64,000 nucleotides of DNA. Origin: Patescibacteria group bacterium. Lineage in GTDB: Bacteria; Patescibacteriota; Microgenomatia; UBA8517. The stretch spans positions 20,549 through 84,548 of the forward strand of contig DATDRP010000003.1 of NCBI GenBank assembly GCA_035291665.1, read 5' to 3'. Shown piece by piece: positions 6,073-64,000 of the stretch; the stretch's first letter is position 1; every line of letters begins with the position of its first letter. Below the pieces are notes generated by a model. That model was not told the origin of the DNA. It ran no database searches and saw nothing but the letters and a program-made list of their open reading frames with translations. Position numbers and translations under genes: made by a program.

Positions 6073-6087
6073 GAAATTCACAAAGGT

Positions 6088-17747: not shown

Positions 17748-17799
17748 TATTTTCTCTCACCTCCCTCAAGAATATAGTATAACAACTTTACCGAAGGTA

Positions 17800-21199: not shown

Positions 21200-21379
21200 A
21201 ACACTGTAACCAAGCAACCGAATTTCCAATTACGTAATTGATCTAATTACTAAATAATTACCAATAACCAAGCATCAAATTACAAATAATAATTAATTTA
21301 CAAATATTAATCAGGTATTAATTGTTAATTTTCTCAATACAGATAGTTTTTTTATTGAAATTTAGTGATTGTAAATTTG

Positions 21380-28594: not shown

Positions 28595-28654
28595 TAATTA
28601 TACACGAATTAAAATCACTAATTTACTACTAATTACATGCTAATATTAACCTGA

Positions 28655-29056
28655 ATGGCCAAATTAATCTTCCCTAAATTAAGTTATACCATAATGGGAA
28701 TCCTTTTTCAGATTCATGCAAAACTCGGGAATCAATATCAAGAAAAATACTACCAACGAGCATTAGAATCGGCCTTAAAAGAACATGATATAAAATATAA
28801 AAAAGAACTCAAATCGGACTTATTTTATAACGAAGTAAAGATAGGGAAATATTTTCTCGACTTTTTGATTGAAGATAAAATTATATTAGAGTTAAAGACT
28901 AAACCCTTTTTTACTGGTCAGGATATAAGACAGGTTTTAGCTTACTTAAAAGCCAACAATAAACGTTTAGGTATTCTGGCAAATTTTAGAACTGGAAGTC
29001 TCACATATAAAAGAATTATTAATAACCACTACACCCCATTCATAAATAATTCGTGA
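28655..29056 (+). CDS. GxxExxY family protein (PD-(D/E)XK-like fold)
   Basis: 133 aa. 'HAKLGNQYQEKYYQRALESAL...DFLIEDKIILELKT' matches the GxxExxY signature and the downstream D...E.K motif. Gene is flanked by AATTCGTGA-type repeats. Confidence 0.7.
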   Translation: MAKLIFPKLSYTIMGILFQIHAKLGNQYQEKYYQRALESALKEHDIKYKKELKSDLFYNEVKIGKYFLDFLIEDKIILELKTKPFFTGQDIRQVLAYLKANNKRLGILANFRTGSLTYKRIINNHYTPFINNS

Positions 29057-31457: not shown

Positions 31458-31571
31458 ACATTCATATTAACAAACAATACCTCACTAATTAATTGCTAAT
31501 TCCAATTGGAGATTAATTCGTGTTTCTAATTTGTGAGTAATTAGTGATCAAAATTCGCTTGCAATTCGTGA

Positions 31572-40567: not shown

Positions 40568-40576
40568 ATATGAATC

Positions 40577-40987
40577 ATGAATTATGAATTAAGAAGTATG
40601 AAGAAAGAATTAAAGAAAATAAAAAATTTTACGGATTTGAATGTTTGGAAAGAAGCCCACAAACTTGTACTTACCGTGTATAAAATAACTAAGAAATTTC
40701 CTAAAGATGAACAATTCGGCTTGATAAACCAATTAAGACGTGCAGTTGTTTCAATAACATCTAATATTTCAGAAGGATTTAGCAGATATTCTTATAAAGA
40801 AAAGTCCCAATTTTACTTCATGGCACTTGGATCCCTAACGGAAGTTCAGAATCAATTAATAATAGCTAAAGACTTAAAGTACATTACCAGCAATGAATAT
40901 TATCAACTAGAAGAGTTGACTGTTGTTGTAAGTAAATTACTAAACGGTCTTATCAAAGTATCTAAAACTAAAATTCATGATTCGTGA
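40577..40987 (+). CDS. Four-helix-bundle protein (23S rRNA intervening-sequence protein / Avd-like family), second copy
   Basis: 136 aa. 'SITSNISEGFSRYSYKEKSQFYFMALGSLTEVQNQLIIAKDLKYIT' is the family signature. The palindromic motif GAATCATGAATT occurs at both flanks (40571-40582 and, reverse-complemented, 40971-40982). Confidence 0.7.
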   Translation: MNYELRSMKKELKKIKNFTDLNVWKEAHKLVLTVYKITKKFPKDEQFGLINQLRRAVVSITSNISEGFSRYSYKEKSQFYFMALGSLTEVQNQLIIAKDLKYITSNEYYQLEELTVVVSKLLNGLIKVSKTKIHDS

Positions 40988-41040
40988 TTTATTGATGTTT
41001 AATACCATGATTCATAATTCTTGATTCGTGATTCAAATAT

Positions 41041-47584: not shown

Positions 47585-48921
47585 TTAGAGTGTATTGGTA
47601 TGAGAACCCGAGAATAATTGAGATTCCGCTTCCGGCAACAGAAATTACTATTCAGGACTTGACTGATCAGATTAAAGATCTTGAAGACGAACCTGCAAAT
47701 CTTGCCTTCCCGATTTTGGTAAAAACCTTCGGTAAGCAGCCGTTGGGAGCAGGTGTTTATGTAGGTATCACAGCTGAACTGCAAAATGCCAAAGTGTCTT
47801 TTGCAGCCAGAGATGGAACCGATATCCCACCGGAGGTGCTTTGTACAATCTCCGGTGGAAATTTGGTTGCTGTCGATGAAAATGGCGTTCCTATGAACCC
47901 AATACACCCGACTGCGTATACTCAAGTTGTTCTTGCCCAGTCCTCCTCGGCAACAATTGCCACACCGCCGTCGGACTACAGTTTGCTGTATCTTGTGGAG
48001 TCACTGCGGGGAAACCACGCATCGGTTGGGAACATTTGGTACTGGGACCCGGTTAGCGGGTCTGATACCAATGACGGGACCACGCCATCAAACGCAGTGC
48101 AAACCTTCGCTAAGGTTCAATCACTTTCTGATTTGGCAAACGGGGTTAATGATATCGTTTTCGCGCTCGTTACCGACCCATCCGGTATTACAACGGTTAC
48201 AAATGAAAATATTAATATCACCTCTTCTACACCAGGCATGAAACTCCGGGGGCCGGGGTATGCCTTTCAATTCAAACCGGCAACGGCGGGTAGCGATGTG
48301 ATTACAATATCTGCCGACAATGTTGAAGTCAGCGGCTTTTATATCCAGCCAAAATCTCCGGGATCCGATAACGGTATCACGGTAACCGGTGATAGTGCTC
48401 TTATTAAAGATATCTGGGTTGATACGGCAACCGCCAATGGAATTGATATCAGCACTTCCTCAAGAACCAAAATTGAAAAGTGCGTCATCGAAAACTGCAC
48501 CGGAAACGGAGTTAATCTTGGCGCGTCAACGATCAAATCCAATATCACAACCTGTATCATCTCCGGTTGTGTCAACGGGGTTGATCTAGGAGGGTCGGGG
48601 TTAACCGACAATATCCTGGAAAATAATGTTATTTATAATAATTCCGGTTATGGGATTGATATCGGTGCCGGAGTTTTGCGGACGGGTGTTCGGATGCATC
48701 ACACGTTTTCTAATAACACTTCGGGCAGTTATTACGACGAACCGCCCACTGCAGCAAAATACACTTTTGTCGAAGAAGGTGTTGCAACCGGAGATATAAA
48801 CGCTATTGTAGATGCAGTTTGGGATGAGGTTATCTCACCTTCCGCCCATACCGGTGCCCAATCAGCGGGTAAAACTCTTCGCGATGCAAAAACAAAAGCC
48901 ACTCTGGCATCACTTAAGTAA
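47578..48921 (+). CDS. Right-handed beta-helix (pectin-lyase fold, tailspike-like) protein
   Basis: Repeats 'GNGVNLGASTIKSNITTCIISGCVNGVDLGGSGLTDNILENNVIYNNSGYGIDIGAG' are typical parallel beta-helix rungs. No signal peptide. The start is placed at the ATG at 47578, because the track's GTG at 47536 overlaps the divergent TPR gene. Confidence 0.45.
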   Translation: MALRVYWYENPRIIEIPLPATEITIQDLTDQIKDLEDEPANLAFPILVKTFGKQPLGAGVYVGITAELQNAKVSFAARDGTDIPPEVLCTISGGNLVAVDENGVPMNPIHPTAYTQVVLAQSSSATIATPPSDYSLLYLVESLRGNHASVGNIWYWDPVSGSDTNDGTTPSNAVQTFAKVQSLSDLANGVNDIVFALVTDPSGITTVTNENINITSSTPGMKLRGPGYAFQFKPATAGSDVITISADNVEVSGFYIQPKSPGSDNGITVTGDSALIKDIWVDTATANGIDISTSSRTKIEKCVIENCTGNGVNLGASTIKSNITTCIISGCVNGVDLGGSGLTDNILENNVIYNNSGYGIDIGAGVLRTGVRMHHTFSNNTSGSYYDEPPTAAKYTFVEEGVATGDINAIVDAVWDEVISPSAHTGAQSAGKTLRDAKTKATLASLK

Positions 48922-48934
48922 TTTTGTAAATTAG

Positions 48935-49235
48935 AGATAAGAAAAAAAATGGGATGTGGGAAGTGGGTTCTAAGTAATAGGTTGTAAGCAGTAAGTTGTA
49001 GGAGGTAGGTTGTAGGAGATAGGTTATAGGAAAAGAGAAATGAGTTGTGGGAAGAGAAACTGGGAATGAGATGTGAGTTGTGAGTAGTGGGAAATACAGA
49101 TAAGAAATTAGGAATATAGGAATTAAGAAATTTAGAATAAAGAGAATAGAGAAATAGGAAAAATAATTGCGGAAGGGAGATTGATAATTGTAAAATAAAT
49201 CCTATATTAATGGTGTTGTGAAGACTAACGAAGTA
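48935..49235. repeat. Composite repeat island C (modules X and Y)
   Basis: Module X 'gggatgtgggaagtgggttctaagtaataggttgtaagcagtaagttgtagg' and module Y 'gtgggaaatacagataagaaattaggaatataggaattaagaaatttagaataaagagaatagag'. Only ~5 C in ~240 nt on the + strand. Confidence 0.75.
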
Positions 49236-49427
49236 TTACTCAGCTTTTGGATCGGTCGGCTCTTCTTTGACTGCTTTTTCGAATTCACTTTTAGCCTGTT
49301 TTATGCCTTTTGTGGTTTCACCGGCTTTCTTGCCAAGACCTCTGAAAATTGCTCCACCGAAGAATAAAAGTACTACTAAAACGATAATGATAATTTCGGT
49401 CGTTCCGATATTTTGAAGAAATCCCAT
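49236..49427 (-). CDS. tatA: Twin-arginine translocase subunit TatA/E family
   Basis: 63 aa. 'MGFLQNIGTTEIIIIVLVVLLFFGGAIFRGLGKKAGETTKGIKQAKSEF' gives N-terminal TM + FG hinge + amphipathic helix. Flanked on both sides by GT-rich repeat islands. Confidence 0.7.
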   Translation of the reverse strand: MGFLQNIGTTEIIIIVLVVLLFFGGAIFRGLGKKAGETTKGIKQAKSEFEKAVKEEPTDPKAE

Positions 49428-49439
49428 ATTAAAAAATAT

Positions 49440-49900
49440 ATTAATACTAAGATTCCCGAATGTCCAGTAGCAGTTTTACCCCATATTAGTAAAGGGTGAC
49501 AGAAAATTAGATTTAAGTTTAAGTTGTATGTTGTAGGTGATAGGAAGTGAGTAATGAGAAGTGAGATGTGAGAAATAAGAGTTAAGAGGTAGGTTGTAGG
49601 TGGTGGGATGTGGGATGTGAGTGGTGGGAAATACAAATAAGAATTTAGGAATACAGGAATTAAGAGAAAAGAAATGGGATGTTGGAAGTGGGTTTTAAGT
49701 AATAGGTTGTAAGTAGTAAGTTGTGGGAAAAAGGTTGTAGGTTATAGGTTATAGGAGCGAAGTTAGAAATATAGAAATTTAGTATTTTGTTTTAAGTTTT
49801 CAATTGAAGAACATTGGCCATTTAGCATTCGTATCTCGTCTCACGTATCACGTATTACATCGCTTGGTTTGAAAAGTACCGAACTAACAAGATCTCATTG
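49440..49900. repeat. Composite repeat island D (modules Y then X, then 'CGTATCTCGTCTCACGTATCACGTATTAC' module)
   Basis: Y: 'gtgggaaatacaaataagaatttaggaatacaggaattaagag'. X: 'gggatgttggaagtgggttttaagtaataggttgtaagtagtaagttgtggg'. These are the same modules as island C in swapped order. The tail module is shared with island F. Confidence 0.75.
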
Positions 49901-49934
49901 ACAGTTTCGATTACATCAAATTAATATTACCTGT

Positions 49935-50606
49935 ATGCCTTCAGCTTTATACAATAGAAAATACGTACAGAATGGCTACTATTATATTTATCACAAGTCC
50001 TCGGGAGGAAAAGAATTATTCCGCGATGAAGATGACTATTTGAATTTTGTTAAAACTTTTCAATATTATTTGACATCACCCACCGGTAAACCTCTAAGTC
50101 AAACAAAAAAAGAGGATTTAACCCAAACACCTTCACATATCCAGCTCTCTTTCAGGATACTACTGTTTGTCCTTCTACCCAAAAGTATACACATATTAAT
50201 CCGACAAAATACTCCCCCTCAGACCAACAATAATATAACTAATCTGATGCGAAGACTTTCTATCACTTATTCGATGTACTATAAAAACAGATACGATACT
50301 CATGAAAGCTTATTTGATGGGAAGTATAAAAATATTAATATCCCCGACAACGAAAAACTTCTTTATTTGTCCAAACATATTCACAGAATGCCCCTTGACC
50401 TTTATCCGCAGGAAACACTTGAGAAATACATTTACTCCAGTTATCCCTTTTATATTGGTGTGGCCGGCAAACCCGATTGGTTAGATACAAAAATAATATC
50501 CGATATACTCTTACGGTCAAGTCCGGGTTTGGGATACAAAAATTTTGTTGAAAATTCACACCTTGGCAAAGACTTGGATAAGAAATATATCGTGAATGGG
50601 GGTTAA
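49935..50606 (+). CDS. IS200/IS605-like Y1 (HuH) transposase / RAYT-like protein with degenerate HuH motif
   Basis: 'NGYYYIYHKSSGGKELFRDEDDYLNFVKTFQYYL' corresponds to the N-terminal block (YHVxxRGNxRxxIFxDDxDxxxFL). 'KSIHILI' sits at the HuH position, where the first His is replaced. 'ITNLMRRLSITYSMYYKNRY...SLFDGKYK' corresponds to the LxxLxxxYT...WQxRY(K) block with the candidate catalytic Tyr. Confidence 0.5.
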   Translation: MPSALYNRKYVQNGYYYIYHKSSGGKELFRDEDDYLNFVKTFQYYLTSPTGKPLSQTKKEDLTQTPSHIQLSFRILLFVLLPKSIHILIRQNTPPQTNNNITNLMRRLSITYSMYYKNRYDTHESLFDGKYKNINIPDNEKLLYLSKHIHRMPLDLYPQETLEKYIYSSYPFYIGVAGKPDWLDTKIISDILLRSSPGLGYKNFVENSHLGKDLDKKYIVNGG

Positions 50607-50692
50607 CAACCAATAATTAAATCTATATATCTGTTTTTTGGGACTCTTGATCAAACTATAAGAAGAAAGTATGATTAGGAAACAATAAATTT

Positions 50693-50938
50693 ATGTTTTC
50701 CAACATCGGCGTCACTGAAGTTATTATCATCATCTTGGTTCTGACTGTGATTCTCGGCAGTAAGAAAATGGGAGAACTTGCCAGCAATGCCGGACGGGCT
50801 GGCGCTGAGCTAAAAAAAGTCAAAAAGGAATATGAAGCTGCTATGAAAGAATTGGACAAGGAAATCAACGTTGATGATGAAAAAAAAGAAAAATCAGAAA
50901 AGAAAGATTCTTCAGAAAAAAAAGGAGGTGAGCTTTAA
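50693..50938 (+). CDS. Tat translocase subunit, TatB-like (TatA/B family with extended charged tail)
   Basis: 'MFSNIGVTEVIIIILVLTVILGSKKMGELASNAGRAGAELKK' has the TatB-like 'LG' hinge instead of FG. The long K/E-rich C-terminal tail is TatB-like. It overlaps the next tatA by 1 nt (TAATG). Confidence 0.55.
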   Translation: MFSNIGVTEVIIIILVLTVILGSKKMGELASNAGRAGAELKKVKKEYEAAMKELDKEINVDDEKKEKSEKKDSSEKKGGEL

Positions 50939-51078
50939 TGGCTAATTTTGGAGTACCGGAACTTCTCATTATTTCATTAATACTTGTGTTCATGTTCGGA
51001 AGCAGAAAAATTCCGGAATTCATTAAAGGTATGGGTCAGGGAATCAAAGAATACCGAAAAGCTGTAAGCCGTAAGTAA
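50938..51078 (+). CDS. tatA: TatA family protein (46 aa; absent from ORF track because <60 aa)
   Basis: ATG at 50938 overlaps the upstream stop (TAATG). Translation is MANFGVPELLIISLILVFMFGSRKIPEFIKGMGQGIKEYRKAVSRK, with stop TAA at 51076-51078. Canonical TatA TM-FG-amphipathic helix. Confidence 0.7.
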   Translation: MANFGVPELLIISLILVFMFGSRKIPEFIKGMGQGIKEYRKAVSRK

Positions 51079-51100
51079 ACCTTGGATTTCAACGTAAATT

Positions 51101-51835
51101 ATGCCCAAAACGCAGGAGCTTCAACTTGAAGAGTCCATAAATAAATATTATCCGTTTCTGATGGAAATCAGGAAAAGACTTTTATTCCTGGCAACAATCT
51201 TTGTGGTTTCCGCAGTCGGGGGATTTTTTTATTACGAACGGATTGTCAGAATAATTGTTGATTTTTTGTCGCTTGACGGCATCAACATTGTTTTCACCTC
51301 GCCTTTCCAGTACTTAAATCTTGCCGTTGATGTTGCCTTCCTGGTCGCAGTAATTGTTATCTTTCCGGTAATCATCTATCAGATAATAACTTTCCTACGT
51401 CCCGCTCTCAAAAAAAGTGAGTACAATTTAATGATCTCCTTAATCCCCATTGGTTTTTTCCTATTTATATTCGGCTTCATCTACGGAGTTGTCATGATGC
51501 GCTATGTTATGCAACTATTTTTCGAAAAATCAGTCGAGCTTAATATCGGCAACATGCTGGATATAAGCTCGCTACTTTCCAAAATAGTATCAACTTCAAC
51601 TTTTATGGGTTTAGCTTTTGAATTTCCAATCGTTGTCACGGCTTTGGTAAAACTTAAAGTTATAAAACTTAAAGTCGTTTCCCAACAAAGAGTTTACGCC
51701 TGGTTTGCATCCCTGATCTTCGCGGCAATGCTGCCGCCTACGGATCTGCTTTCTTTGGCACTTCTGACTATGCCTCTTGTAATCCTATTCGAATTTACGC
51801 TATTATTTAACAGATTATTTTCTTTGAGAAAATAA
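51101..51835 (+). CDS. tatC: Twin-arginine translocase subunit TatC
   Basis: 244 aa, six TM helices. 'GLAFEFPIVVTALVKLKVI' and 'AAMLPPTDLLSL' match conserved TatC segments (FE-PV, P-TD). Confidence 0.8.
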   Translation: MPKTQELQLEESINKYYPFLMEIRKRLLFLATIFVVSAVGGFFYYERIVRIIVDFLSLDGINIVFTSPFQYLNLAVDVAFLVAVIVIFPVIIYQIITFLRPALKKSEYNLMISLIPIGFFLFIFGFIYGVVMMRYVMQLFFEKSVELNIGNMLDISSLLSKIVSTSTFMGLAFEFPIVVTALVKLKVIKLKVVSQQRVYAWFASLIFAAMLPPTDLLSLALLTMPLVILFEFTLLFNRLFSLRK

Positions 51836-51912
51836 TCATATTATAAGTCCGGTTAGATTTGGGCACTTGCCAAGCCCGATCGCACCTAACCATAGAGAGG
51901 GAGTGATAGTAA

Positions 51913-52059
51913 ATGTTAAGAGGTATTGGAACTACAGAACTATTAATCATTGCTGTTGTACTTTTGGTGTTGTTCGGAGGTAAGAAGTTGCCTGAACTTG
52001 GAAAAGGAATCGGAGACGCTATCCGAGAGTTCAGAAATTCAATGAAGAATAAGGAATAA
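51913..52059 (+). CDS. tatA: TatA family protein (48 aa; <60 aa, not in ORF track)
   Basis: SD GGGAG lies 9 nt upstream of ATG 51913. Translation is MLRGIGTTELLIIAVVLLVLFGGKKLPELGKGIGDAIREFRNSMKNKE, with stop at 52057-52059. Confidence 0.7.
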   Translation: MLRGIGTTELLIIAVVLLVLFGGKKLPELGKGIGDAIREFRNSMKNKE

Positions 52060-52110
52060 TTTTTTACTTTAAAAAAATAAAAAGTTTCGGACTGCTTCAT
52101 CTTTGTTTGT

Positions 52111-52509
52111 ATGGGATTGATATCGCCGTTATTTTCGCTTATTGCACCGTTTATTATTTGGCCGGTTGAGTATCTGTTGCCTTTTCCTTATTTAGTCGAA
52201 GAAGTCTACAAGTCAATACTCGTACTTCTCGTGGTTAATGACAATCTTTCAAAGAAGGATCAAGCACTTCTTGTTGTTGTTAACGGAGTATTATTTTCAA
52301 TTTCGGAAACATTCTTCTATTTTATTAATATCTATAAAGTCGGTTCTCTGACAACAGTTTTGGAGCGACTTATTTCTACCACCCCGTTACACATTGTTAC
52401 GATTTTAATTATTTTCTATTTTGCAAAGAAAAATAAGAAATTGTTGCCAATTGGTTTTTTTGTTTCGGTAATCCTTCATTATTTATTTAATTTGATGATT
52501 GGAAAATAA
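52111..52509 (+). CDS. Small polytopic membrane protein, possibly CPBP/CAAX-type intramembrane protease-like
   Basis: 132 aa with 4 TM helices. 'VEEVYKS' (EExxxK), 'ILHYLFN' (HxxxN). Short for the family, so a weak call. Confidence 0.25.
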   Translation: MGLISPLFSLIAPFIIWPVEYLLPFPYLVEEVYKSILVLLVVNDNLSKKDQALLVVVNGVLFSISETFFYFINIYKVGSLTTVLERLISTTPLHIVTILIIFYFAKKNKKLLPIGFFVSVILHYLFNLMIGK

Positions 52510-52564
52510 ACGGGTAAGATAGTTGCGCATATAATTAATATTGTCCTGTATAATCGCTACAAAA

Positions 52565-52730
52565 TATAATCTCTGATGTGAGAGTTGAGAGATGAGATGT
52601 GGGAAGTGAGAAGTGAGTTGTAAGCAGTAGGTTGTAGGTAATAGGTTGTGGGAGGTAGGAAATTGGTATATTCCTAATATCTTAATATCGAAGCACATAA
52701 TATCTCTCCTATTCGTGATCAGTTCGTGAT
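52565..52730. repeat. Composite repeat island E (GT-rich module + 33-nt 3' motif + TTCGTGAT pair)
   Basis: 'gatgtgagagttgagagatgagatgtgggaagtgagaagtgagttgtaagcagtaggttgtaggtaataggttgtgggaggtagg', then 'cctaatatcttaatatcgaagcacataatatct' (52673-52705), then 'attcgtgatcagttcgtgattc'. Confidence 0.75.
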
Positions 52731-53297
52731 TCAAAGAATCCATTGAAGAAAAACTGTCGCAAACTCATCCTCAGAAAAATCAATCAGTGTTTTTGCTCCC
52801 ATTTGTTTGTAAAAATTCAAAGACAGGTTGGTCGTATCGCTGACGTAAGAATATATTGCTTTCATGCTATTTTCTCTTGAAAATTTGATGGCCTTCTTGA
52901 AAAGTCTCGATCCGTACCCCTTATCCCGATATTCCGGCCGGATATACATATACATCAACTCATAAGAAGGTTTAATCATGTGGTAATCCTCTGAAACCCA
53001 TTTTTCTTCTTTAAAAGTTTTTTCCCAAAAATTCATTTTCGCATCCGAAAAACCAAAAACACAAAAACCAACGTAGTTGTCGCCGTTTTCATCTTCTTGA
53101 AATATTACATGTACTTTGGAGTTTGAATCTTTGTCGCGAAGGTCAAATTCTTTGGAAATTCTTTTTACAAATTTTTTATAAAAAGTATCACCGCCTACAA
53201 TCTCTGAAATTTGCATTATTTCGTCACGGACCATACCCAAGTATATTTCAAATGGGATTTTGTAGTAAAGATTACTTTGTAGGTCAAAATAGAGCAT
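52731..53297 (-). CDS. GNAT family N-acetyltransferase
   Basis: 188 aa. 'YMYIRPEYRDKGYGSRLFKKAIKFSRENSMKAIYSYV' is acetyl-CoA-binding motif A (R/Q-x-x-G-x-G/A). Confidence 0.65.
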   Translation of the reverse strand: MLYFDLQSNLYYKIPFEIYLGMVRDEIMQISEIVGGDTFYKKFVKRISKEFDLRDKDSNSKVHVIFQEDENGDNYVGFCVFGFSDAKMNFWEKTFKEEKWVSEDYHMIKPSYELMYMYIRPEYRDKGYGSRLFKKAIKFSRENSMKAIYSYVSDTTNLSLNFYKQMGAKTLIDFSEDEFATVFLQWIL

Positions 53298-53304: not shown

Positions 53305-53631
53305 AAGCACTATGGCCAGGCGCTAGGTATAAGGTAGTGAGAAGTGAGAAATGAGATGTGGAAATTGAGATGTGGGAAGTAAGTGGTGGGAAGTGGAAAA
53401 TAGGTTGTAGGAGGTAGGATATCAGGAATATAGGAATTAAAGGAATAAGTAGTTTCGTTCTTCTTTTTTCGTCTCTCGTATCCCGTATAACTTGTCACTT
53501 GTTACGTATTACTTTTCCCCTACCGCTTGATATCTTTCCTATTCGAGTTCAATTCGTAGCTATAATTCGTGATAATTAGTGATGTAAATTTGTGAGCTAA
53601 ATTCGTGAGTTCAATTCGTCTTAACTCGTAG
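53305..53631. repeat. Composite repeat island F (GT-rich module, 'TCGTCTCTCGTATCCCGTATAAC...ACGTATTAC' module, AATTCGTGA array)
   Basis: 'ggtagtgagaagtgagaaatgagatgtggaaattgagatgtgggaagtaagtggtgggaagtggaaaataggttgtaggaggtagg', then 'cgtctctcgtatcccgtataacttgtcacttgttacgtattac', then 'caattcgtagctataattcgtgataattagtgatgtaaatttgtgagctaaattcgtgagttcaattcgt'. Confidence 0.75.
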
Positions 53632-56478
53632 CTAATTAGTAGACATACTCGTGTAGCTCTTTGAGACCCATCCCAATAGGTCTTTATCATATTCTATTTG
53701 GTACCAGTCATCTTTCTCGGAGATTACGCTATACGAATCACCGGGATTTACTTTCGCCACCTCAACACCATCCGGTTGACTTCTGACTCGAAGCCAGCCT
53801 GTCGGCGTTTCAGTTATCTTAATTTCAATAGGTTCTGCGTCAGCTACTTTTTCTTCTGATTCTTCTGAAGCGTTGGATGTGACAATATACTTATTTTCTA
53901 TCCAACCGGATTTTTCAGAACCGTCCGCTAATGCTATTTCAACCCAATCTCCGTCCTCGCTGACTTTCACAACCTGTTCATCGTTTTTTACATCAAATAA
54001 TATCTCGCCATCTGTATCCGGAAGGTTCCGCACCTGAATATCAGCCTCGGAATCAGACTTCAATCTTACAAATTCAACTCCCCCGACCGATTCTTCCTGG
54101 TTGGCTGTCTGTGCAACTTCTTCCTTGGTTTTGGTAACTTCCTGATCGCTCACTGCCGGCGTGTTGGACGCTGCCGGTACGTAACGAAGAATCAATGCCG
54201 TTGTGAATGATGAAGTAACCGCAACTATCATCAAAGGCAGTGCCGTTCGCAATAAACCCTTAAATCCACCCCTTTTCTTTTCAGGCTGGGTTGCTTTTTT
54301 CTTATTTTCAGGCTCTACCTCCTGAACATGATCCTGAGAAAGCTTTTTCTTTTTTCTGCCGGAAATCATTCTCATGTAAAGCGCCAGGAAGACAAAACCT
54401 GTCGCCATGATGATGATGAGTCCCCAAACTGCAATAGCCTGAGCACCTCCGACAAATCCAAATAGCGTACCGGTCGAACCAGCTTGCGTCACCAGCTCTT
54501 TTAGTTTATCCATCTTCTCAGTTACAGCTTGAAGCTCAATCACAGCTTCACGATAATTTCTGATCTTCTGTTCAGGTGTTTGAGCTGTAGCCTGAAGGTT
54601 ATTGATTTTATCCAAGGATACATTAATGTCGCTTGTCAGAGTTACACCCTGGGCAAAAAAAGCCGTTCCTTCCAGTGGTTTGGAAAGCTCTTCCGCTTGT
54701 TTACGAAGACTGTCGATTTCATTGTCAGATATCACCCAAATGTCTTCCACTCTGACGGCAAAGACTTTGGTTTCGGCTGGTTCAAGTTCGAACTCACCTT
54801 CAATATAGTATTGATCTTTCTCTGTATCGTACTGGACTTTTAATCCTTCATCCACCTCTATGATATCTTCTTCTCTGACTTCAGGAGGAAGATAATATTT
54901 TATTGGTACGCTTTGAGAAACAAGAGTTGAGGGATTCGTGATCATTGATTTAAAAACCATGCTCCCTTCTTCAAGCCAAAAGTTGGAAAATGACGTTCTT
55001 CCACCCTTGGCCAAAAGCATTTTGTTTGATGAGATGAGTGCTTTAAGAGTAAGTAGCGAATTTTTAATCTTGGCAACAGCAGTACTTCCGAAAGACTTCG
55101 ACTCTGTTACAGCGCTGGCTTTTGGAATTCTATTTATAGCAAGTATGCTTTTTTTGAGATCCTCTACATTCTCGGGTTTAACCTGGTTTTTAGAATCGCC
55201 TATCGATGATAAATATTGGTCCACCTGGTTATTTTTTGTATCTAATACCAAAACTGTTTCTTCGACGTCTTTGATTTTTCCGAAAACTGTCGGCTTACTT
55301 GAGCTGTCGCTTGAATCTCCGATCATTTTTTCCAATATCGAAAGATAGTTTGTGAGACCGGCAAGCTCGCGTTTTGTATTTGGTGTTTTTCCGCTTGTTG
55401 ATAATGAATTCTTCGCATAAGCCACAACTTTTTTAATCGCTTTCACCTGGTCATTTACATCGGGTAGAACATCCCAGTTCCAGGAATCGGAAAGCCAATT
55501 CACCTGACCAAAAAACGAATTGACCGATCCGGAATCGCTTTCATCCCCAATCACCGAATCCAGCTCGGTTAAATTGTTCATAAGCTCCTCCTCGCTTAAC
55601 GTATTCCATTTTGAGCTTATGTTGGACGATTTACTCTGAATATATTGATTGTTAATATAAACCTGAGTCGCAATACTCTTTGATTGCGTCAGTTTTTCAG
55701 TTAGATCCTGGTTATCCTCTTCGATAAAACTTTCAATAATTGGTTTATTGACCAGCTTTTCCAAGAGGAGTCTGTTTTCTTTAATCGTTTTTTTAACATC
55801 ATTTAAATCTGCTGACACATTGGTGATATTCGTTGCGTTATCGATATCGGTCTTTGTTGCAAGATTTCCGCTTGTCAGGGTTGTACCGGTAAGTGTTCTT
55901 GTGGATGAATCCCAGATGTTGGTAACCAGAGATCCGAAACCCGTCAGAGTCCTGCCTGAATAATTCCAAATGTCATACGCTAGGTTTCCAAAACCCGAAA
56001 GTGTTTTGTTGGAATAATTCCAAACTGCTGAAGCGATTGAACTGGTTGTCAGACTGCTTGCTGTATCGCTGACTTCAAAGCTCTTATCTATACATAAATT
56101 CTCTGTTCCATTGGTACAACAAACCCGTGATCTATAAAATCCCGTTGCAGTTGGTGCTGTAAAATCTTTATGGTACCAACCATCAGTCTCCATAGTCATC
56201 AAAGCTCCGTTATGAATAAGGTTGTTGCTTTGATCGCGTGTGGTGATTGTGCAGGTGTAACCGGCAACAATTGGTGTATAGGAGTCATCAAACAGAAATT
56301 CACCGACAGTGCAATCAGTATCAGGAGTACAAACATTTGAGCTGCCCGACGCAGCCTTAACAAGATCAGCTCTCATCAAGGCTGCGCTAAATAACAAAGC
56401 TAAAATAGCTTTAAAGCCAAAACCTTTAGCGGTTCTTGTATAGCTTTGAGATTTAATTGTTAATTTTTGGGCAGTCAT
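53632..56478 (-). CDS. Large (948 aa) envelope protein: signal peptide, extracytoplasmic N-domain, coiled-coil, two TM helices, tandem C-terminal SH3b domains
   Basis: N-terminal signal (ILALLFSAALMRADLVKAAS). TM 'LFGFVGGAQAIAVWGLIIIMATGFVFLALY', then a K-rich loop, then TM 'LLRTALPLMIVAVTSSF'. C-terminal 'GWIENKYI' and 'GWLRVRSQPDGVEVAKVNPGDSYSVISEKDDWYQIEY...GWVSKSY' are SH3_3-like. Confidence 0.5.
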   Translation of the reverse strand: MTAQKLTIKSQSYTRTAKGFGFKAILALLFSAALMRADLVKAASGSSNVCTPDTDCTVGEFLFDDSYTPIVAGYTCTITTRDQSNNLIHNGALMTMETDGWYHKDFTAPTATGFYRSRVCCTNGTENLCIDKSFEVSDTASSLTTSSIASAVWNYSNKTLSGFGNLAYDIWNYSGRTLTGFGSLVTNIWDSSTRTLTGTTLTSGNLATKTDIDNATNITNVSADLNDVKKTIKENRLLLEKLVNKPIIESFIEEDNQDLTEKLTQSKSIATQVYINNQYIQSKSSNISSKWNTLSEEELMNNLTELDSVIGDESDSGSVNSFFGQVNWLSDSWNWDVLPDVNDQVKAIKKVVAYAKNSLSTSGKTPNTKRELAGLTNYLSILEKMIGDSSDSSSKPTVFGKIKDVEETVLVLDTKNNQVDQYLSSIGDSKNQVKPENVEDLKKSILAINRIPKASAVTESKSFGSTAVAKIKNSLLTLKALISSNKMLLAKGGRTSFSNFWLEEGSMVFKSMITNPSTLVSQSVPIKYYLPPEVREEDIIEVDEGLKVQYDTEKDQYYIEGEFELEPAETKVFAVRVEDIWVISDNEIDSLRKQAEELSKPLEGTAFFAQGVTLTSDINVSLDKINNLQATAQTPEQKIRNYREAVIELQAVTEKMDKLKELVTQAGSTGTLFGFVGGAQAIAVWGLIIIMATGFVFLALYMRMISGRKKKKLSQDHVQEVEPENKKKATQPEKKRGGFKGLLRTALPLMIVAVTSSFTTALILRYVPAASNTPAVSDQEVTKTKEEVAQTANQEESVGGVEFVRLKSDSEADIQVRNLPDTDGEILFDVKNDEQVVKVSEDGDWVEIALADGSEKSGWIENKYIVTSNASEESEEKVADAEPIEIKITETPTGWLRVRSQPDGVEVAKVNPGDSYSVISEKDDWYQIEYDKDLLGWVSKSYTSMSTN

Positions 56479-57833: not shown

Positions 57834-58479
57834 ACCGTATCGGTACTTCTGTTATAATTTACGTATCGGTACAAATAAGATTCTCCAACAAACAAAAATT
57901 TTAGTGGTTTTAAAGATATCCTATACTTTCGAATTTTATAAATATTTAATTTTGGTTCTTAAAAAATATAATGTTTTATTTTTCATAACGGTACAACTAC
58001 ATTTTTGTATTTTGTTGATAATTTTTTTATAATTTCTTATAAATTTTTTGGGTCTTAAATTGCTAAATTATTAAAATATTTCTAGGTATATTCTTATGTA
58101 CCTTCGGTACATTCATATTTTCCTGCTATTTTTCTAAAAAAACCCAAGTCAGTTATTGATATCCCCCATTGGTCTAACACTGTAGTTTTTTCTAAAGAAA
58201 AATTTCATCATTTTTAATACTTCTTTTTTTGTATTTTAAATTGTTATTCCAATATTTTTATACTGCTCCGGTGCAATTACCCCTCGGTATTTTTCCTCCG
58301 TTATTTCGTATGAAGTAAATTTTCTCTGAAACTAGAATTCTCTTTTCTTATCCCCGAACATACATACATGGTATTTCAGGAAGTTGGATAATTTTTTTTA
58401 GTTTATTATTGATTCCTAATCTTCGTAACAACTATTTATGTAACGGTTGATTATTAAAATATTTGAATTTTTTATATTG

Positions 58480-58598
58480 TAATGACATCCTCCCCGCCTT
58501 AAAAGGCGGGGTTTCCCTAAGGAGGATGACATACCGTGCCCGCCGGCAGGCAGGTCAGAGTTCAATTCATCCACGCCCTAAAGGGTTAGGTTTTCTTG
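58480..58598 (+). ncRNA. Candidate structured small RNA / RNA element, copy 2 (plus strand), ending in an intrinsic terminator
   Basis: Outer stem ATGACATCCTCC (58482-58493) ... GGAGGATGACAT (58521-58532) encloses the hairpin CCCCGCC-TTAAAA-GGCGGGG. Shared single-stranded 'TCAGAGTTCAATTCATCCAC'. 3' hairpin CCTAA-AGGG-TTAGG followed by TTTTCTTGAA. Reverse-complement homolog of 20612-20720. Confidence 0.5.
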
Positions 58599-58858
58599 AA
58601 CGCTGTTATAATTAGATTGTAAATATAATTCTTATAATATAATACAAAATTAATATTAATATTTTAAATTTATCGTTCTTGAAAGTAAATTAATTATAAT
58701 TCTTGAATAGAATTTATATAACTACATAAAAATATACATTTCACTAACTACTATTATATATAACACTATATGTATTAATAGATCTCATAATAGCACTAAA
58801 TACCACTTTATAATTTTTACAACATCTGATATATATAGAGTTATAAAGAGGAATTAAT

Positions 58859-59887
58859 ATGGATGATCAGCAATCAGCTGGACTTTTCAGTATCGGAGCA
58901 GCTTCCGAATATCTAGGAATATCTATTGATACACTAAGAAGATGGGAAAGAAAAGGCAGAATCGAACCCCTACGATCCCCAGGAGGGCATCGCTATTTCA
59001 AGAAGGAAGACTTGGATAATTTATTTGGAAGAAGATACACAAGAGAAGAACCGGCTAACCAATCAACTATGCCCGATAGTACACCTATTGAACAAACAAA
59101 TATTAAGGAAGATGTAACACAACCCTTAAGCAATTTAAACGATAATAATTCAAGTGTAACTGAGAATTTAACGTCTACCCAATCAGCAGATGCAACCGTT
59201 CAAGATACTATATCTAAAGAAGATTATCCGCAACAAACTGCAAATCCTCAATTAAAGACTGAAGTTCCGGAAAATAATCCTCTACAAGAACCAATTTCAC
59301 CTACTCCAGTTGCTATACCCGTTCCAAACCAGAATGAAATGTTAAAAACCATTCCTTATTCGGATCCGGGCGTACCTGCTGCTACCGAAAATATACAAAG
59401 TTCCTCAACTGCACCCGAAGTGCAAGTTGCCTCTCCCCAACCGATAATAGAACTGCCAAAGATCTCGCCGGATGAGTATCCCGATACGAAAGTTTCAAAG
59501 CCGGATCAAATAACTAATGAACCGGTTGCTAAACCTACGGAACCTATTCAAAGCTATGAGAACGATAATACAACACAAAATGCACATTTAGTTGAAGCGC
59601 CTTCTCAGGTTGAAAATGCTAACACACAAGAAACGCTTATACCTGTTACCCCGGTTCCTGAATCTTCATCACAAGTGCCTTTGAATGAAGCTCCAAAACA
59701 ACCTGTATATGAAACAACAAAAGATATTGATAAAAAAATTGAAGAAGTTTTACAAAGCAGTAAACCGAAGAAGAAAATTACAACAGAAACCAAGTTACTA
59801 ATAGCCATAGCAATCGCTATTGTTGTAAACATTATTCTTTTTACACTTTGGTTCAAATCTTACGCTTCAGTATCACCAGTAAACTAA
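58859..59887 (+). CDS. MerR-family HTH protein with long disordered P/T/Q-rich linker and C-terminal transmembrane anchor
   Basis: 'FSIGAASEYLGISIDTLRRWERKGRIEPLRSPGGHRYFKKEDL' is a MerR/excisionase-type HTH. About 230 aa of low-complexity sequence follow. C-terminal 'LLIAIAIAIVVNIILFTLWF' TM helix. Confidence 0.55.
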   Translation: MDDQQSAGLFSIGAASEYLGISIDTLRRWERKGRIEPLRSPGGHRYFKKEDLDNLFGRRYTREEPANQSTMPDSTPIEQTNIKEDVTQPLSNLNDNNSSVTENLTSTQSADATVQDTISKEDYPQQTANPQLKTEVPENNPLQEPISPTPVAIPVPNQNEMLKTIPYSDPGVPAATENIQSSSTAPEVQVASPQPIIELPKISPDEYPDTKVSKPDQITNEPVAKPTEPIQSYENDNTTQNAHLVEAPSQVENANTQETLIPVTPVPESSSQVPLNEAPKQPVYETTKDIDKKIEEVLQSSKPKKKITTETKLLIAIAIAIVVNIILFTLWFKSYASVSPVN

Positions 59888-59889
59888 CG

Positions 59890-60065
59890 AAAGGGATATT
59901 ACGTGCTTCGATATTAAGATATTAGGACTATTTCAATTTTTAATTTCCCTCTTTCCACCACTCACATCTCACTTCCCATTACTCATTTCCAATTTCTTTT
60001 CTCTTTTCTCTTTATTCTAAATTACTTAATTCTTAAATTCCTGTATTCCTAAATTCTTATTTCTA
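59890..60065. repeat. Composite repeat island G (reverse orientation: 33-nt motif complement, then CT-rich complement of modules X/Y)
   Basis: 'gatattacgtgcttcgatattaagatattagg' (59895-59926) is the reverse complement of the 33-nt motif. '...ctctttattctaaattacttaattcttaaattcctgtattcctaaattcttatttc' is the reverse complement of module Y. Confidence 0.7.
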
Positions 60066-60070
60066 ATGTG

Positions 60071-60141
60071 TGGACCGGCCGAGAATCGAACTCGGGACTC
60101 GTCGTTGCGAACGACGCGGTATTCCACTTACCTATCGGCCC
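60071..60141 (-). tRNA. tRNA-Ala (anticodon CGC)
   Basis: Reverse complement folds as acceptor GGGCCGA / CCGGTCC (G3:U70 alanine identity pair; A7:C66 mismatch). D-arm GGTA-AGTGGAA-TACC. Anticodon stem CGTCG/CGACG with loop TTCGCAA (anticodon CGC). T-arm CCGAG-TTCGATT-CTCGG. Discriminator A. CCA not encoded. Confidence 0.85.
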
Positions 60142-60240
60142 TGTGATGGCACTATTATACCAATAAATGAATTTACAAAACACATTAGCCATAGTTCATA
60201 CTCTCTATCTAATATCGAATCACTTAATATCAATTTATTT

Positions 60241-61413
60241 TTACTGAAGTACGTTCAGTGGATTAATATGCACTCCGTTTTGAATTACCTCAAAATGCAA
60301 ATGCGTACCGGTTGACCTTCCGGTTGATCCCATCTTCCCTATCGTATTGCCTCGATTTACTGATTGACCCGGAACCACATAAATTTTTGCCATATGTGCA
60401 TAAAGCGTACGGTATCCATTACCGTGATCGAGAATTACTCTGTTCCCATAACCGAATGCATCCGGCCATCCGGCAACAATTACTTTTCCGGAATCGGCAG
60501 CCAATATATCAGGAGCCGCACGGTTAGCAATATCAAGACCGGGATGATACCAGACAAACCTCTGAGTGATTGTACCCCCTGCCGGCCAAACGAAGGCTCC
60601 TGATGCAACTACAGTACCTGCATCCGGCGTAGTCTGTTTCGTTCTTGTTGTCGGGGACCAAAGAACTTGAGACGGCTTCACTCCGTCAGGAACCATAATT
60701 TCCTGCCCAATAGCCAGAACAAATGTTTCATCGTTGGCAAATGTGTTAAACGGGTAGTTAACAATAACCTGAGGATCTACATCATAAGTTTTTGCGATTG
60801 AATAGACCGTATCGCCCTTTTTTACGGTATGCATTACACCTGTAATTGGAGGGATTTCAAGAACCTGATCTACTTTTATCGAATCTTTGCTTTGAAGATC
60901 GTTTTGCCATCGTATTGTATCTGTAGTTACCCCGAACTTCTCTGCTATTGAACTCACCGTATCTCCGGTTTGGACTTCATAATCAATCACCCCGCCCCGA
61001 ACATTTTCTGAAAAATTAGTAGAAATTTGCGTGCTCTGAGTAGAACTGGTAAGGACTGAAGTTGAGGAAGGAATTGTCCATGGATCAACATTTCGACCCG
61101 GAAATTCTTGGGAGACAATTGGGGCAATAAACATACCCAGCCCAGCCAGGCTTGTCATTCCAAAATGCACCAGCGGTTTTGCATACTTACCTCTTTGGCG
61201 ATACAAAGAAACAACGATAAATCCCTTTCCGGAGTTAAACTTTGACATTGAGAAATTGATTTTTTTAAGAAAATACTCTGTCAGTTCCTTAAAAAATTCT
61301 AATAATAAATCTTTTTCTTTGTGGAAATATTTCTTGAATTTCCGCCGCCCCAAATTGAAGTGGTTTTGAATTACAATCTTTGACGGCAACACCAGATAAT
61401 GGTTTCTCCTCAT
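60241..61413 (-). CDS. LysM-domain M23 family metallopeptidase (peptidoglycan endopeptidase-like)
   Basis: N-terminal TM. Two LysM motifs (YEVQTGDTVSSIAEKFGVTTDTIRWQNDL; HTVKKGDTVYSIAKTYDVDPQVIVNYP). C-terminal M23 'HPGLDIA...YGNRVILDHGNGYRTLYAHM...GSTGRSTGTHLHFEV' (HxxxD ... HxH). Confidence 0.75.
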   Translation of the reverse strand: MRRNHYLVLPSKIVIQNHFNLGRRKFKKYFHKEKDLLLEFFKELTEYFLKKINFSMSKFNSGKGFIVVSLYRQRGKYAKPLVHFGMTSLAGLGMFIAPIVSQEFPGRNVDPWTIPSSTSVLTSSTQSTQISTNFSENVRGGVIDYEVQTGDTVSSIAEKFGVTTDTIRWQNDLQSKDSIKVDQVLEIPPITGVMHTVKKGDTVYSIAKTYDVDPQVIVNYPFNTFANDETFVLAIGQEIMVPDGVKPSQVLWSPTTRTKQTTPDAGTVVASGAFVWPAGGTITQRFVWYHPGLDIANRAAPDILAADSGKVIVAGWPDAFGYGNRVILDHGNGYRTLYAHMAKIYVVPGQSVNRGNTIGKMGSTGRSTGTHLHFEVIQNGVHINPLNVLQ

Positions 61414-61526: not shown

Positions 61527-62876
61527 TCAAGAAGTTGTGAGTGAATCCAAAAACTCTTTGTTGTCCTTGGTTTTTTTGAGTCTTTCCAATAGAGCTTCCG
61601 TCCGTTCATCTTCCGAAACCATCTCAAGCATACGTCGGAGTGTATACACCTTTTGCAGAATATCTTTACCGTAAAGAAGCTCCTCCTGGCGGGTGCCCGA
61701 TCTTGTAACGTCAATTGATGGGAAAATTCTTCGGTCTGCCAATTTTCGATTAAGGTGCAGTTCCATATTTCCCGTACCTTTGAATTCTTCATAAATAAGG
61801 TCATCCATTCGCGAACCCGTATCAACCAAACAGGTTCCAATGATTGTCATTGATCCGCCGTTTTGAATCTTTCTTGCCGCTCCGAAAAATTTCTTTGCAG
61901 GATATAAAGCAACCGGATCGAACCCTCCTGTTAGAGTTCTTCCCGATGTGGGAAGTGCCAGATTGTATGCCCTGGCCATTCTTGTTATTGAATCCAAAAG
62001 AACTACAACATCCATCCCCATTTCAACCATCCTCTTTGCTTTCTCAAGCGCAAGTTCTCCGACTCTTGTTTGGGCATCGGGTGACTCGTCAAAGTTTGAT
62101 GATGCGACTTCACCCAATCCGTTGGTGACTGTATTCATATGCATCCTGATGTCCGTTACTTCTTCCGGACGCTCCCCGATCAAAACCGCCATCAAATGCG
62201 CTTTTACATCGGATTTTCCATCCTCGGCAAAGTTTTTCGCAATCCCTGTAATAACATCTTTCAAAAGCCACGTTTTACCGGCCTTTGGAGGAGATACAAT
62301 AAGTCCTCTTTGTCCAAAGCCGATTGGCGCAACGAGATCAATTACTCGCGTTGTCAAAGGTTCTGCTCCGGTCGATAGAGTGATATGTTTGTCGGGGTAG
62401 ACTGCAGTCATGCTGTCATAATCAGGTCTCTCCAATAATTTTTCAGTGTCGGAACCGTTTACCTTCTCAACTTTCAAAAGCCCCCAATATCTTTCGTTTT
62501 CTTTCGGTGAACGCGCTTGTCCGCCAACCAAATCACCTACTCGCAGATTGAATCTTCTTATCTGTGAGGCTGAAATATAAACATCTTTATTGGAAGGGGT
62601 GAAATCAGGTCGGAGAAGTCCTGACCCTTCATTGGCAATATCCAGTACACCCTCGACATATTCTGTAGGAAGATTAGCGTCAGGCATATAACGGTCATAA
62701 CCGTTTTGACGATAGGGTTCATCCTGAACCGGATTAACATCATTGACAGGTGCTTCCGCTTTTATTGGTTCCGGCTTCTCACCTACAAGATTTTTAACTT
62801 CGTCAACGGGTTTTACATCATTTCCGGGATCCAAAATTTCGTCTTTATCAGTCTTAGTGGACTTCTTTGTAGCCAT
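61527..62876 (-). CDS. rho: Transcription termination factor Rho
   Basis: N-terminal RNA-binding OB region '[14 protein letters not shown]...[44 protein letters not shown]'. Walker A 'SPPKAGKT'. '[13 protein letters not shown]' and the C-terminal '[39 protein letters not shown]' are highly conserved Rho blocks. Confidence 0.9.
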
Positions 62877-63841: not shown

Positions 63842-63884
63842 TAATACACTTTTAAAAAGATGGAATTTGTAAGACGAAATTTTT

Positions 63885-64000
63885 CACCACCCTCATCCCA
63901 TTTCCCATCTCTTACCACTTACTTCTCACAACCTGTCTCCAAAATCCAAAACCAAATCCCAAATTCCAATTTCATCTCCCTTTTCTCTATTCTCTTAGTT
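63885..64000. repeat. Repeat island H (reverse orientation, G-depleted on + strand)
   Basis: 'caccaccctcatcccatttcccatctcttaccacttacttctcacaacctgtctccaaaatccaaaaccaaatcccaaattccaatttcatctccc' is the reverse complement of GT-rich and GGAAATTGG-type modules. Continues beyond the window edge. Confidence 0.6.

Follow-up and report, generated by a model that had tools for sequence, protein, structure and literature searches.

The DNA analysed here is a 64,000-nucleotide (nt) stretch of contig DATDRP010000003.1 (assembly GCA_035291665.1, positions 20,549 to 84,548 of the forward strand), referred to throughout as the window. Its host is a relative of Woesebacteria within the Patescibacteria (candidate phyla radiation, CPR); the closest Rho proteins elsewhere are only 77-78% identical to its own, and the named ones among them come from Candidatus Woesebacteria. 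Exact protein matches assign the window to JGI metagenome contigs from groundwater and sediment, such as Ga0209751_10000002 (527 kb), and to an NCBI metagenome-assembled genome, labelled Patescibacteria group bacterium, with a longest contig of 606 kb. Our subject is a 33-nt motif, CCTAATATCTTAATATCGAAGCACATAATATCT, which lies at 52673-52705, a short distance past the stop codon of a GNAT acetyltransferase gene, and which an earlier note on this DNA had described as a near-identical repeat. That description is borne out by a mismatch search, which finds four copies in the window at no more than 3 mismatches where dinucleotide shuffles lead one to expect 0.00. A short fifth variant was picked up with the core TAATATCGAAKCAC and refined by profile search to 60203-60231. 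The two variant sites had previously been placed at 16690-16721 and 60208-60230; both are real, with positions slightly off, and they appear below with corrected coordinates.

16691-16723, minus strand, found as a plus-strand match: orphan motif copy, 3 mismatches, in a divergent spacer
21534-21566, minus-strand sense, found as a plus-strand match: motif copy, 1 mismatch
52673-52705, minus-strand sense, found as a plus-strand match: the focal 33-nt motif, 0 mismatches
59894-59926, plus-strand sense, found as a minus-strand match: motif copy, 2 mismatches
60203-60231, minus strand: short variant (GATATTAAGTGATTCGATATTA-GATAGAG), upstream of tRNA-Ala

On its sense (minus) strand the focal copy reads AGATATTATGTGCTTCGATATTAAGATATTAGG. 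The 33-mer is composed of three GATATTA units, two of them in tandem and one set apart by GTGMTTC; the sequence TAATATC, which had been described as duplicated in the motif, in fact occurs three times. When seven copies are aligned with their flanks, the pattern GATA.T..GTG.TTCGATATTA.GATA is invariant, and the edges of the 33-nt block are sharp, with flanks that are unrelated between copies except for a CACGAAWT unit. The copy at 21534-21566, for example, is followed by a TTCACGAAAT unit, while the copy at 16691 is flanked by CACGAATT units similar to a post-stop module at 31482-31571. Five independent assemblies carry the sequence byte for byte, which excludes an assembly artefact; all available assemblies of the window population are 100% identical and show no strain variation in repeat copy number. 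The 33-mer is a real, non-random repeat. Eight independent copies enter the analysis, namely the five in the window and three at loci outside it, which are given L-numbers here (L091 9388-9420, L092 6319-6351 and L005 5566-5598); the sequence sampled from the host amounts to ~110 kb of a ~1-Mb genome.

Open reading frame (ORF) coordinates show that, at all four post-stop copies in the window, the motif appears as AGATATTA..GTGMTTCGATATTAAGATATTARG on the sense strand of the adjoining gene. The focal copy starts 25 nt past the stop codon (52731-52733) of the GNAT acetyltransferase gene at 52731-53297 (minus strand). The copy at 21534 lies 17 nt past the stop (21584-21586) of a stand-alone response-regulator gene (21584-21991, minus), the copy at 59894 lies 6 nt past the stop (59885-59887) of a MerR-like gene (58859-59887, plus), and the variant at 60203-60231 lies 9 nt past the stop (60241-60243) of a LysM/M23 peptidase gene (60241-61413, minus). 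Outside the window the copies are likewise sense-oriented, with stop-to-motif gaps of 109 and 14 nt for L091 and L092, and the L005 copy stands 3 nt past its stop. The exception is the copy at 16691, which is found between two divergent start codons, 137 nt and 63 nt away, and has no upstream stop. In sum, six of the eight copies begin 3-25 nt past a co-oriented stop. When the 33-mer is put at a random position and in random orientation within each copy's own spacer, the probability of at least six copies falling within 26 nt of a co-oriented stop is P ~5e-6.

The earlier claim that the motif sits just 3' of stop codons, in gene orientation, accordingly holds up in the window, and it extends to a second organism, in which the L005 copy follows a ValRS gene. 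The further point that motif orientation matches the upstream gene fares less well: the match itself is seen, yet taken by itself it is worthless as evidence (P=0.25), because in a convergent spacer either orientation has a co-oriented stop upstream. The significant feature is instead the closeness of the motif to the stop of the gene that it points away from. All motif copies are non-coding, and the adjoining genes (GNAT, response regulator, MerR-like, M23 peptidase, ValRS) have no common function. The copies at 59894 and 60203 are especially instructive, as they lie 300 nt apart in opposite orientations, each beside the stop of its own gene, which shows that the polarity follows transcription and not replication. 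A replication-strand polarity of the KOPS or Chi kind was rejected on the strength of these opposed copies and of a GC skew that undergoes no switch. Strand-specific placement, no more than one or two ribosome footprints from the stop and opposed within 300 nt, argues for a role on or through the transcript.

A double-stranded DNA site, be it a direct-repeat operator, an antisense promoter or a DNA-uptake sequence, is very improbable. Three direct GATATTA repeats do resemble multi-site operators, and the opposite orientation of the motif ends in a -10-like TAATAT; moreover, the copy at 16691 and a variant at the related locus L013 lie upstream of genes that are co-oriented in that sense, and the exact core is conserved across organisms, as it would be in uptake sequences. 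However, a position 3-25 nt past stop codons, mostly in convergent spacers and beside genes that share no function, is senseless for an operator. In a promoter scan only the copy at 21534 reaches 9/12 (TTAATA-16-CATAAT, in the antisense orientation), while the copies at 52673, 59894 and 60203 are not flagged, and the -35 region is poor. DNA uptake sequences, for their part, occur at about one per kb and have no gene-strand bias; the motif was rejected as such a sequence on its density (~7 copies in ~110 kb, or about one per 13-16 kb) and its strand-specific placement.

The sense RNA of the post-stop copies gives folding z-scores of 0.3 to 1.5 and is not more stable than shuffled sequence, in agreement with the earlier remark that the motif contains no strong hairpin. 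The RNA of the L091 cassette likewise folds no better than shuffled sequence, and only for the copy at 16691, in its divergent spacer, is there a moderate stem between flank and motif (z -1.9). Since the RNA cannot fold, any recognition of it would be of single-stranded sequence. An intrinsic (Rho-independent) terminator might be suggested by the position just past stops, and the inverted GATATTA arrays of L013 are indeed able to pair into a strong, AU-rich hairpin (-20 kcal/mol, z -3.3), but the window copies have neither a stem nor a U-tract, a terminator consensus scan flags no motif site, and the terminator-like sites at 48-64 kb number 13 against 12.3 expected, with none at these gene ends. 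For the window copies an intrinsic terminator, which the earlier note had also set aside, is effectively refuted. Rfam 15 matched only tRNA-Ala over the window, and a permissive Rfam search of 52450-52800 gave only chance matches (E ~0.9).

The earlier note treated the 33-mer alone, and in so doing missed a larger, low-complexity 3'-flank cassette of 7-8-nt units. The 33-mer is the gene-proximal head module of this modular, lineage-specific cassette and not a free-standing element. Comparison of all long spacers gives the following order in the sense direction: the stop codon, then one or two (T)CACGAA(T) units, then sometimes the 33-mer, often followed by another TWCACGAAWT unit, next degenerate heptamers (CCTACAA, CTCACTT, CCCACAT and so on) over 100-300 nt and, last, a TTCTCTTTTCTCT...TTCCTAA stretch. 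The CACGAA units, the 33-mer, an AAC-rich stretch, the CCTAC/CTCAC/CCCAC heptads and a TTCTCT stretch vary in order and number from one spacer to another. The cassette features of the window are these:

17787-17968, minus strand: cassette lacking the 33-mer, following the stop of gene 17969-18703 (minus) and made up of CACGAAT units and then a heptamer array
21365-21533, minus strand: downstream of the copy at 21534, CACGAA / ACGAATTGC units plus a heptamer array depleted of G on the minus strand
48922-49160, minus strand: heptamer cassette downstream of tatA (~49239-49430, minus), forming a ~90% direct-repeat pair with 49607-49756
49485-49790, minus strand: heptamer cassette lying in the divergent spacer upstream of tatA, a first exception to the 3'-flank rule
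52558-52672, minus strand: degenerate heptamer array of CYYACWW units, period 7/14/21, C-rich and G-poor on the sense strand, filling the rest of the convergent spacer
52706-52730, minus strand: spacer between stop and motif, two CACGAA-type units (aTCACGAActgaTCACGAAtagg)
53317-53631, minus strand: cassette lacking the 33-mer, following the stop of gene 53632-56478 (minus)
59927-60069, plus strand: heptamer / pyrimidine-rich array reaching the 3' end of the convergent tRNA gene
60070-60141, minus strand: tRNA-Ala(CGC), Rfam match, between the two inverted motif copies
63864-64000, plus strand: heptamer array, C-rich on the plus strand, between two minus-strand genes and thus inverted relative to them, a second exception; it continues in L002 to 5440

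Tandem Repeats Finder gives periods of 7, 14 and 21 for the heptamer arrays, and in a composition scan ten intergenic tracts stand out by an extreme asymmetry between G and C. Seven of about ten heptamer arrays are C-rich (G-depleted) on the sense strand of the upstream gene. The asymmetry can be very pronounced, with C 30 and G 3 on the sense strand at 59916-60027 and, on the opposite (plus) strand of 21365-21511, G 48 and C 4. In 3' flanks the CACGAA unit is found 13 times in sense and 3 times in antisense orientation.

Two observations on these arrays may be added here. The tatA gene (~49239-49430, minus) is flanked by direct copies of heptad cassette (48940-49031 vs 49665-49756, 89% identical), and JGI gene calls place at least five small TatA/B/E paralogues plus TatC within ~8 kb around window positions 48900-52100. 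At 857-910, a heptamer array, AACCTAC x7.7, stands in frame in the N-terminal part of ORF 594-5537 (1647 amino acids (aa), secreted-looking) and encodes ...TNNLQPTPYNLPPTTYNL...; 30 nt of it (881-910) are 100% identical to the L091 cassette. Cassette DNA appears to have been captured into the coding region of that ORF.

The motif is restricted to this lineage. The exact 22-nt core has 0 matches in 185,579 species-representative genomes (among which the window's species is not included), and the 33-mer core has 0 matches in viral contigs. A metagenome scan for the 22-nt core, in a collection without the window's own contigs, returned two loci only, L006 and L005. The first is on the 447-kb contig Ga0209751_10000003, from the same sample as the window and probably from the same organism. 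The second is on a Woesebacteria-like contig from a different metagenome; here an identical 22-nt core stands 3 nt past the stop of a ValRS gene whose product is at most 82% identical to anything else and ~68-69% identical to that of named Woesebacteria. The window organism's own ValRS, sought as a measure of divergence from L005, could not be identified among the top matches, the candidate P0194 belonging to another organism. No heptamer cassettes are present in 20 kb of L094, a close relative of L005, and Pfam searches on the ORFs beside the L005 and L091 copies were uninformative.

More distant relatives were sought by profile search in 1.2 Mb of sequence from 80 Woesebacteria/Microgenomates rho loci. 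These hold no full 33-mer copy, only related GATAYTA arrays. At L007, GATATTAC x4 runs from the stop codon of an S1-domain gene; at L008, GATAYTAN x4-5 occurs at 8 nt and at 63 nt past stops, the second after an M23 peptidase orthologue; and at L013, AGATATTAGGATATTAGG begins 1 nt past a stop and is followed by an inverted, 33-mer-like variant, the inverted pair folding as the strong AU-rich hairpin already mentioned. GATAYTA clusters number 14 in intergenic DNA against 4 weak coding matches, and of the 13 intergenic clusters with an upstream gene call (among them the 33-mer copies of L005 and the window), 11 follow a stop in sense orientation. Arrays of GGATATTA-type octamers are also present in unrelated AT-rich viral contigs, mostly as giant-virus-like microsatellites, so that a bare octamer array is not diagnostic.

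How the copies came to be where they are is illuminated by a 245-nt cassette pair on contig Ga0209751_10000003 (L091 9367-9610 and L092 6128-6372), the members of which are 98.8-99.6% identical. The duplicated unit begins 7 nt ahead of a stop, takes in the 33-mer and runs on into the heptads; the pair is inverted around a 6-kb block of three genes (672, 211 and 928 aa) without Pfam matches, and by its orientation either copy forms the 3' flank of a gene outside the pair. Metagenome contigs break exactly at these 245-nt repeats, with L006 running from one copy to the other, and the 6-kb block between them may be invertible or transposed. Turnover is seen at the M23/MerR junction. In the nearest two syntenic relatives, L087 and L090 (Rho 76-77% identical), PKD, sortase, rho and M23 genes are kept and MerR is convergent, and the M23/MerR gap is 31-44 nt vs 353 nt in the window, where it contains the motif variant, tRNA-Ala, heptad array and motif. 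The tRNA-Ala(CGC) at 60070-60141, between the M23 peptidase and MerR genes, has the G3:U70 identity pair; in L090 the tRNA-Ala(CGC) is at 14395-14465 (anticodon read from the sequence), ~2.4 kb away and beyond a TPR gene, a difference in position that points to local rearrangement.

A further locus of this kind is that of ValRS, the 3' end of which (the last ~110 nt) is duplicated ~400-900 nt downstream (L005 5350-6068; L094 11903-13054). The duplication brackets an insertion with a 101-aa ORF, and in L094 a 73-aa winged-helix-like ORF as well. This arrangement is the signature of an element integrated into a gene 3' end. By contrast, duplicated gene 3' ends are not found above shuffle background at the four window copies.

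Such findings bear on the idea that the motif marks, as an inverted repeat or an attachment site, the end of a small mobile element inserting at gene 3' ends. In its favour are the inverted pair at 59894/60203, which surrounds a 340-nt segment of tRNA-Ala and array that is missing in L087 and L090, the 245-nt cassettes inverted around three genes of unknown function, and the L005 motif at the edge of the ValRS insertion. Yet most copies stand alone, the far end of the cassette having no partner copy; terminal inverted repeats are lacking, and the four window copies show no target-site duplications. Neither the 40 window proteins nor the JGI gene calls that were scanned (48.9-60.4 kb, and beyond the window's right end) include a transposase, an integrase or a RAYT. 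The members of the inverted pair, furthermore, adjoin their own stops, and convergent genes with individual 3' signals would give the same picture. We consider a mobile-element end quite improbable. The earlier note had offered a 3'UTR (3' untranslated region) binding signal and a mobile-module end as alternatives, and there is evidence for both: placement speaks for the first, and duplication together with presence/absence differences for the second, of which the duplicated 245-nt cassette and the turnover stand, while the inverted repeats, target-site duplications and transposase that a mobile end calls for were not found.

Our leading reading, held tentatively, is that the motif is a sequence-specific, single-stranded 3'-end signal on the transcript. 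It would act on the transcript rather than on DNA, at the very start of the 3'UTR, with the 33-mer serving as an obligately single-stranded, sequence-specific recognition site for a protein factor. That factor would help to set where the mRNA ends, through factor-dependent termination or as a block to exonuclease trimming, and the site would serve gene ends devoid of hairpin terminators. The G-poor and unstructured array next to it might then offer naked RNA on which helicase-type terminators such as Rho could load, and new copies would arise through duplication of whole cassettes. What the sequence shows is the anatomy and placement of the motif, its lack of structure, its duplication and its restriction to the lineage; its transcription, the binding of a factor and an effect on 3'-end formation are matters that we infer. 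A working analogy, and only that, is provided by the PPR10-type barriers of chloroplasts, in which protein bound to ~20-30 nt of conserved, unstructured intergenic RNA defines transcript ends in places that lack hairpin terminators; the protein that would bind the present motif is hypothetical.

Several observations weigh against this reading. Cassettes are found at only about a third of the gene ends in the window and the motif at only four, from which it follows that the motif is not a general end signal. The copy at 16691 and the L013 variant lie upstream of genes, not past stops. Cassette and motif are absent from the syntenic M23/MerR site in L087 and L090, and the motif that follows ValRS in L005 does not do so in contigs L094 and L095, where ValRS is more than 90% identical; presence/absence turnover and 99%-identical cassettes fit selfish or neutral repeats equally well. 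As for the proposed part of Rho, the 33-mer is not C-rich and lies upstream of the C-rich array, which is not the classical order of rut site and then pause, and skewed arrays at the 80 related rho loci are sense-C in 33 cases vs 48 that are not. In addition, the RNP1 motif reads EGSGLLR in the 111 clade Rho sequences checked (Woesebacteria/Microgenomates homologues among P0001-P0120), as opposed to EGFGFLR in T. maritima Rho, both phenylalanines being replaced (by S and L). The RNP1 of E. coli Rho is DGFGFLR, and judging from these substitutions the RNA preference of clade Rho may differ from that of E. coli Rho.

The main alternative, that of functionless repeat DNA produced by slippage and recombination and surviving only in harmless 3' flanks and in the harmless orientation (no promoter, ribosome-binding site or antisense effect), is one that we doubt while regarding it as a real possibility. 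It would account for the degenerate arrays of period 7/14/21 throughout the spacers, for the 245-nt pair and the ~90% identical pair flanking tatA, for the turnover at the M23/MerR and ValRS loci, for the exceptions in position and orientation, for the 30-nt heptamer piece in frame in a coding region (881-910) and for the octamer arrays of unrelated viral contigs. Heptamer repeats elsewhere have been treated as slippage products (PMC4679880). On the other hand, the 33-mer is sharp-edged and nearly invariant amid wholly different flanks, a 22-nt core stands 3 nt past a stop in another organism in which 20 kb show no heptamer cassettes, and the 3-25-nt gap is tighter than mere tolerance of 3' flanks requires.

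A rho gene is present in the window at 61527-62876 (minus strand), and Rho prefers C-rich, G-poor, unstructured RNA of ~80 nt. This raises the prospect of a Rho-dependent terminator cassette, the array being the loading site (one YC per 7 nt) and the 33-mer a pause or entry element. Such a cassette would sit well with sense arrays as strongly G-poor as that at 59916-60027, with sense RNA beside the motif that does not fold and gene ends without hairpin terminators, and with a clade Rho in which the other primary-site residues (equivalents of Y80, E108, Y110, R66 and D78) are kept. The pattern GATAnTnnGTG also fits the G-10/Y-1/G+1 elemental pause, a fit ~40% likely by chance. Against the idea stand the RNP1 replacements and the position of the motif ahead of the C-rich array, both given above, as well as two or three arrays that are wrongly oriented or in 5' regions and, at L008, GATAYTA arrays amid G-rich heptads on the same strand. 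A general C>G bias of 3' flanks was dropped as support for Rho, being found neither in the window overall (C 14.9%, G 16.1%) nor at the 80 related loci. The Rho-dependent cassette is, on this showing, improbable. We likewise regard as unlikely the broader proposal that portable, sequence-defined terminator cassettes replace hairpins in Woesebacteria-type Patescibacteria, with a protein-read 33-nt header and a G-free heptad array that would load the GSGLLR Rho and be copied between gene ends.

Among known systems, natural rut regions invite comparison in that most arrays here are C>G, unstructured, 100-300 nt long and downstream of stops, with rho present. To our knowledge, rut sites in nature neither recur as repeats nor share a conserved sequence, and they do not multiply as cassettes; unlike rut regions, moreover, the 33-mer is not C-rich, array orientation is inconsistent in relatives and the clade Rho is deviant in RNP1. 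REP/BIME of E. coli and BOX of pneumococcus are interspersed, extragenic mosaics of sub-modules, mostly in 3' flanks and convergent spacers, for which effects on mRNA ends, stability and termination have been proposed. The cassettes described here resemble them as mosaics of extragenic sub-modules, interspersed and in variable combination. REP and BOX units are, however, imperfect hairpin-forming palindromes, and REPs are linked to RAYT transposases, whereas the present units are direct repeats whose RNA does not fold, and no RAYT is found in the sequence scanned (~110 kb of ~1 Mb).

The closest likeness in unit structure is to the heptameric repeats (GGGNATC, the cyanobacterial STRR type, TAACTGA), which share with the present arrays units of 7-8 nt, tandem and degenerate arrangement, a mostly non-coding location, adjoining genes without common function and a scattered occurrence across lineages; both the arrays of period 7/14/21 and the three units of the 33-mer, two in tandem, are of this type. 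GGGNATC repeats of Xanthomonas and Nostoc lie at most 50 bp from stops, on the coding strand, and are transcribed (PMC4692102), while the TAACTGA repeats of Beggiatoaceae, cyanobacteria and Bacteroidetes lie before start codons (PMC4679880), unlike the motif here, which is past stops. The 33-mer differs from all of these in being a fixed composite of one unit, a 7-nt unique insert and two units, block-copied and sharp-edged, which heads a cassette of several modules in set order; its AT-rich sequence cannot give rise to G-quadruplexes. A literature search found no description of such cassettes in Patescibacteria.

The question is of some consequence, as transcript ending in the candidate phyla radiation is almost unexplored and these bacteria cannot be grown alone. 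If the motif is indeed a 3'-end signal, it would represent a terminator or stabiliser that is defined by its sequence, needs no hairpin and spreads in modular form, and it would serve as an easy marker of where operons end in such genomes. Should it be a tolerated repeat and nothing more, a streamlined genome of ~1 Mb still has several hundred low-complexity bases at many of its gene ends. In either case cassette repeats break metagenome assemblies, as in contig L006.

The window and its relatives contain several other features of note. A second repeat family, structured and ~50 nt long, is found at 20620-20716 and 58483-58600, and its outer stem, ATGACATCCTCC...GGAGGATGACAT, encloses an inner G+C hairpin (CCCCCGAGTCCGACTCGGGGG, CCCCGCCTTAAAAGGCGGGG); at 20623-20704 its two hairpins are terminator-like on the minus strand, yet lie between plus-strand genes. 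One copy of this family falls in 57834-58858, a 1-kb AT-rich, ORF-free stretch between the Fic and MerR-like genes (the surrounding 4 kb have 34% G+C). Syntenic relatives have a 670-aa TPR gene beside MerR, and the stretch may be a decayed gene or a regulatory region.

Two small genes for 23S rRNA intervening sequence proteins (four-helix-bundle, PF05635) and one PD-(D/E)XK_3 gene are present, at 5626-6073, 40569-41035 and 28589-29056, respectively. The 9-mers AATTGACCT and AATTAGGTC stand on either side of the first PF05635 gene and the 7-mers TATGAAT and ATTCATG on either side of the second, and a 24-nt repeat precedes the PD-(D/E)XK_3 gene; all three look like inserted cassettes. Inside the 1647-aa ORF there is a 535-nt direct repeat (2242-2776 vs 3043-3577, 84% identical), a domain duplication in a giant surface-protein gene cluster with Laminin_G_3 / DUF2341 neighbours.

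Upstream of the PKD/PA14 gene is a non-coding region of ~650 nt (L002 6460-7310, just past the window's right end; L087 3795-4480; L090 5465-6126). It has a perfect DnaA box (TTATCCACA) in all three loci; L087 and L090 have sequence stretches and several hairpins in common, and L002 has a similar hairpin as well as 2.5 tandem 50-nt repeats. Rfam gave no match to the L090 region, and the region could be origin-like or an undescribed RNA. Also in L090, positions 1-2289 comprise the 3' part of 23S rRNA, then a group I intron match and a LAGLIDADG ORF, and then 5S rRNA.

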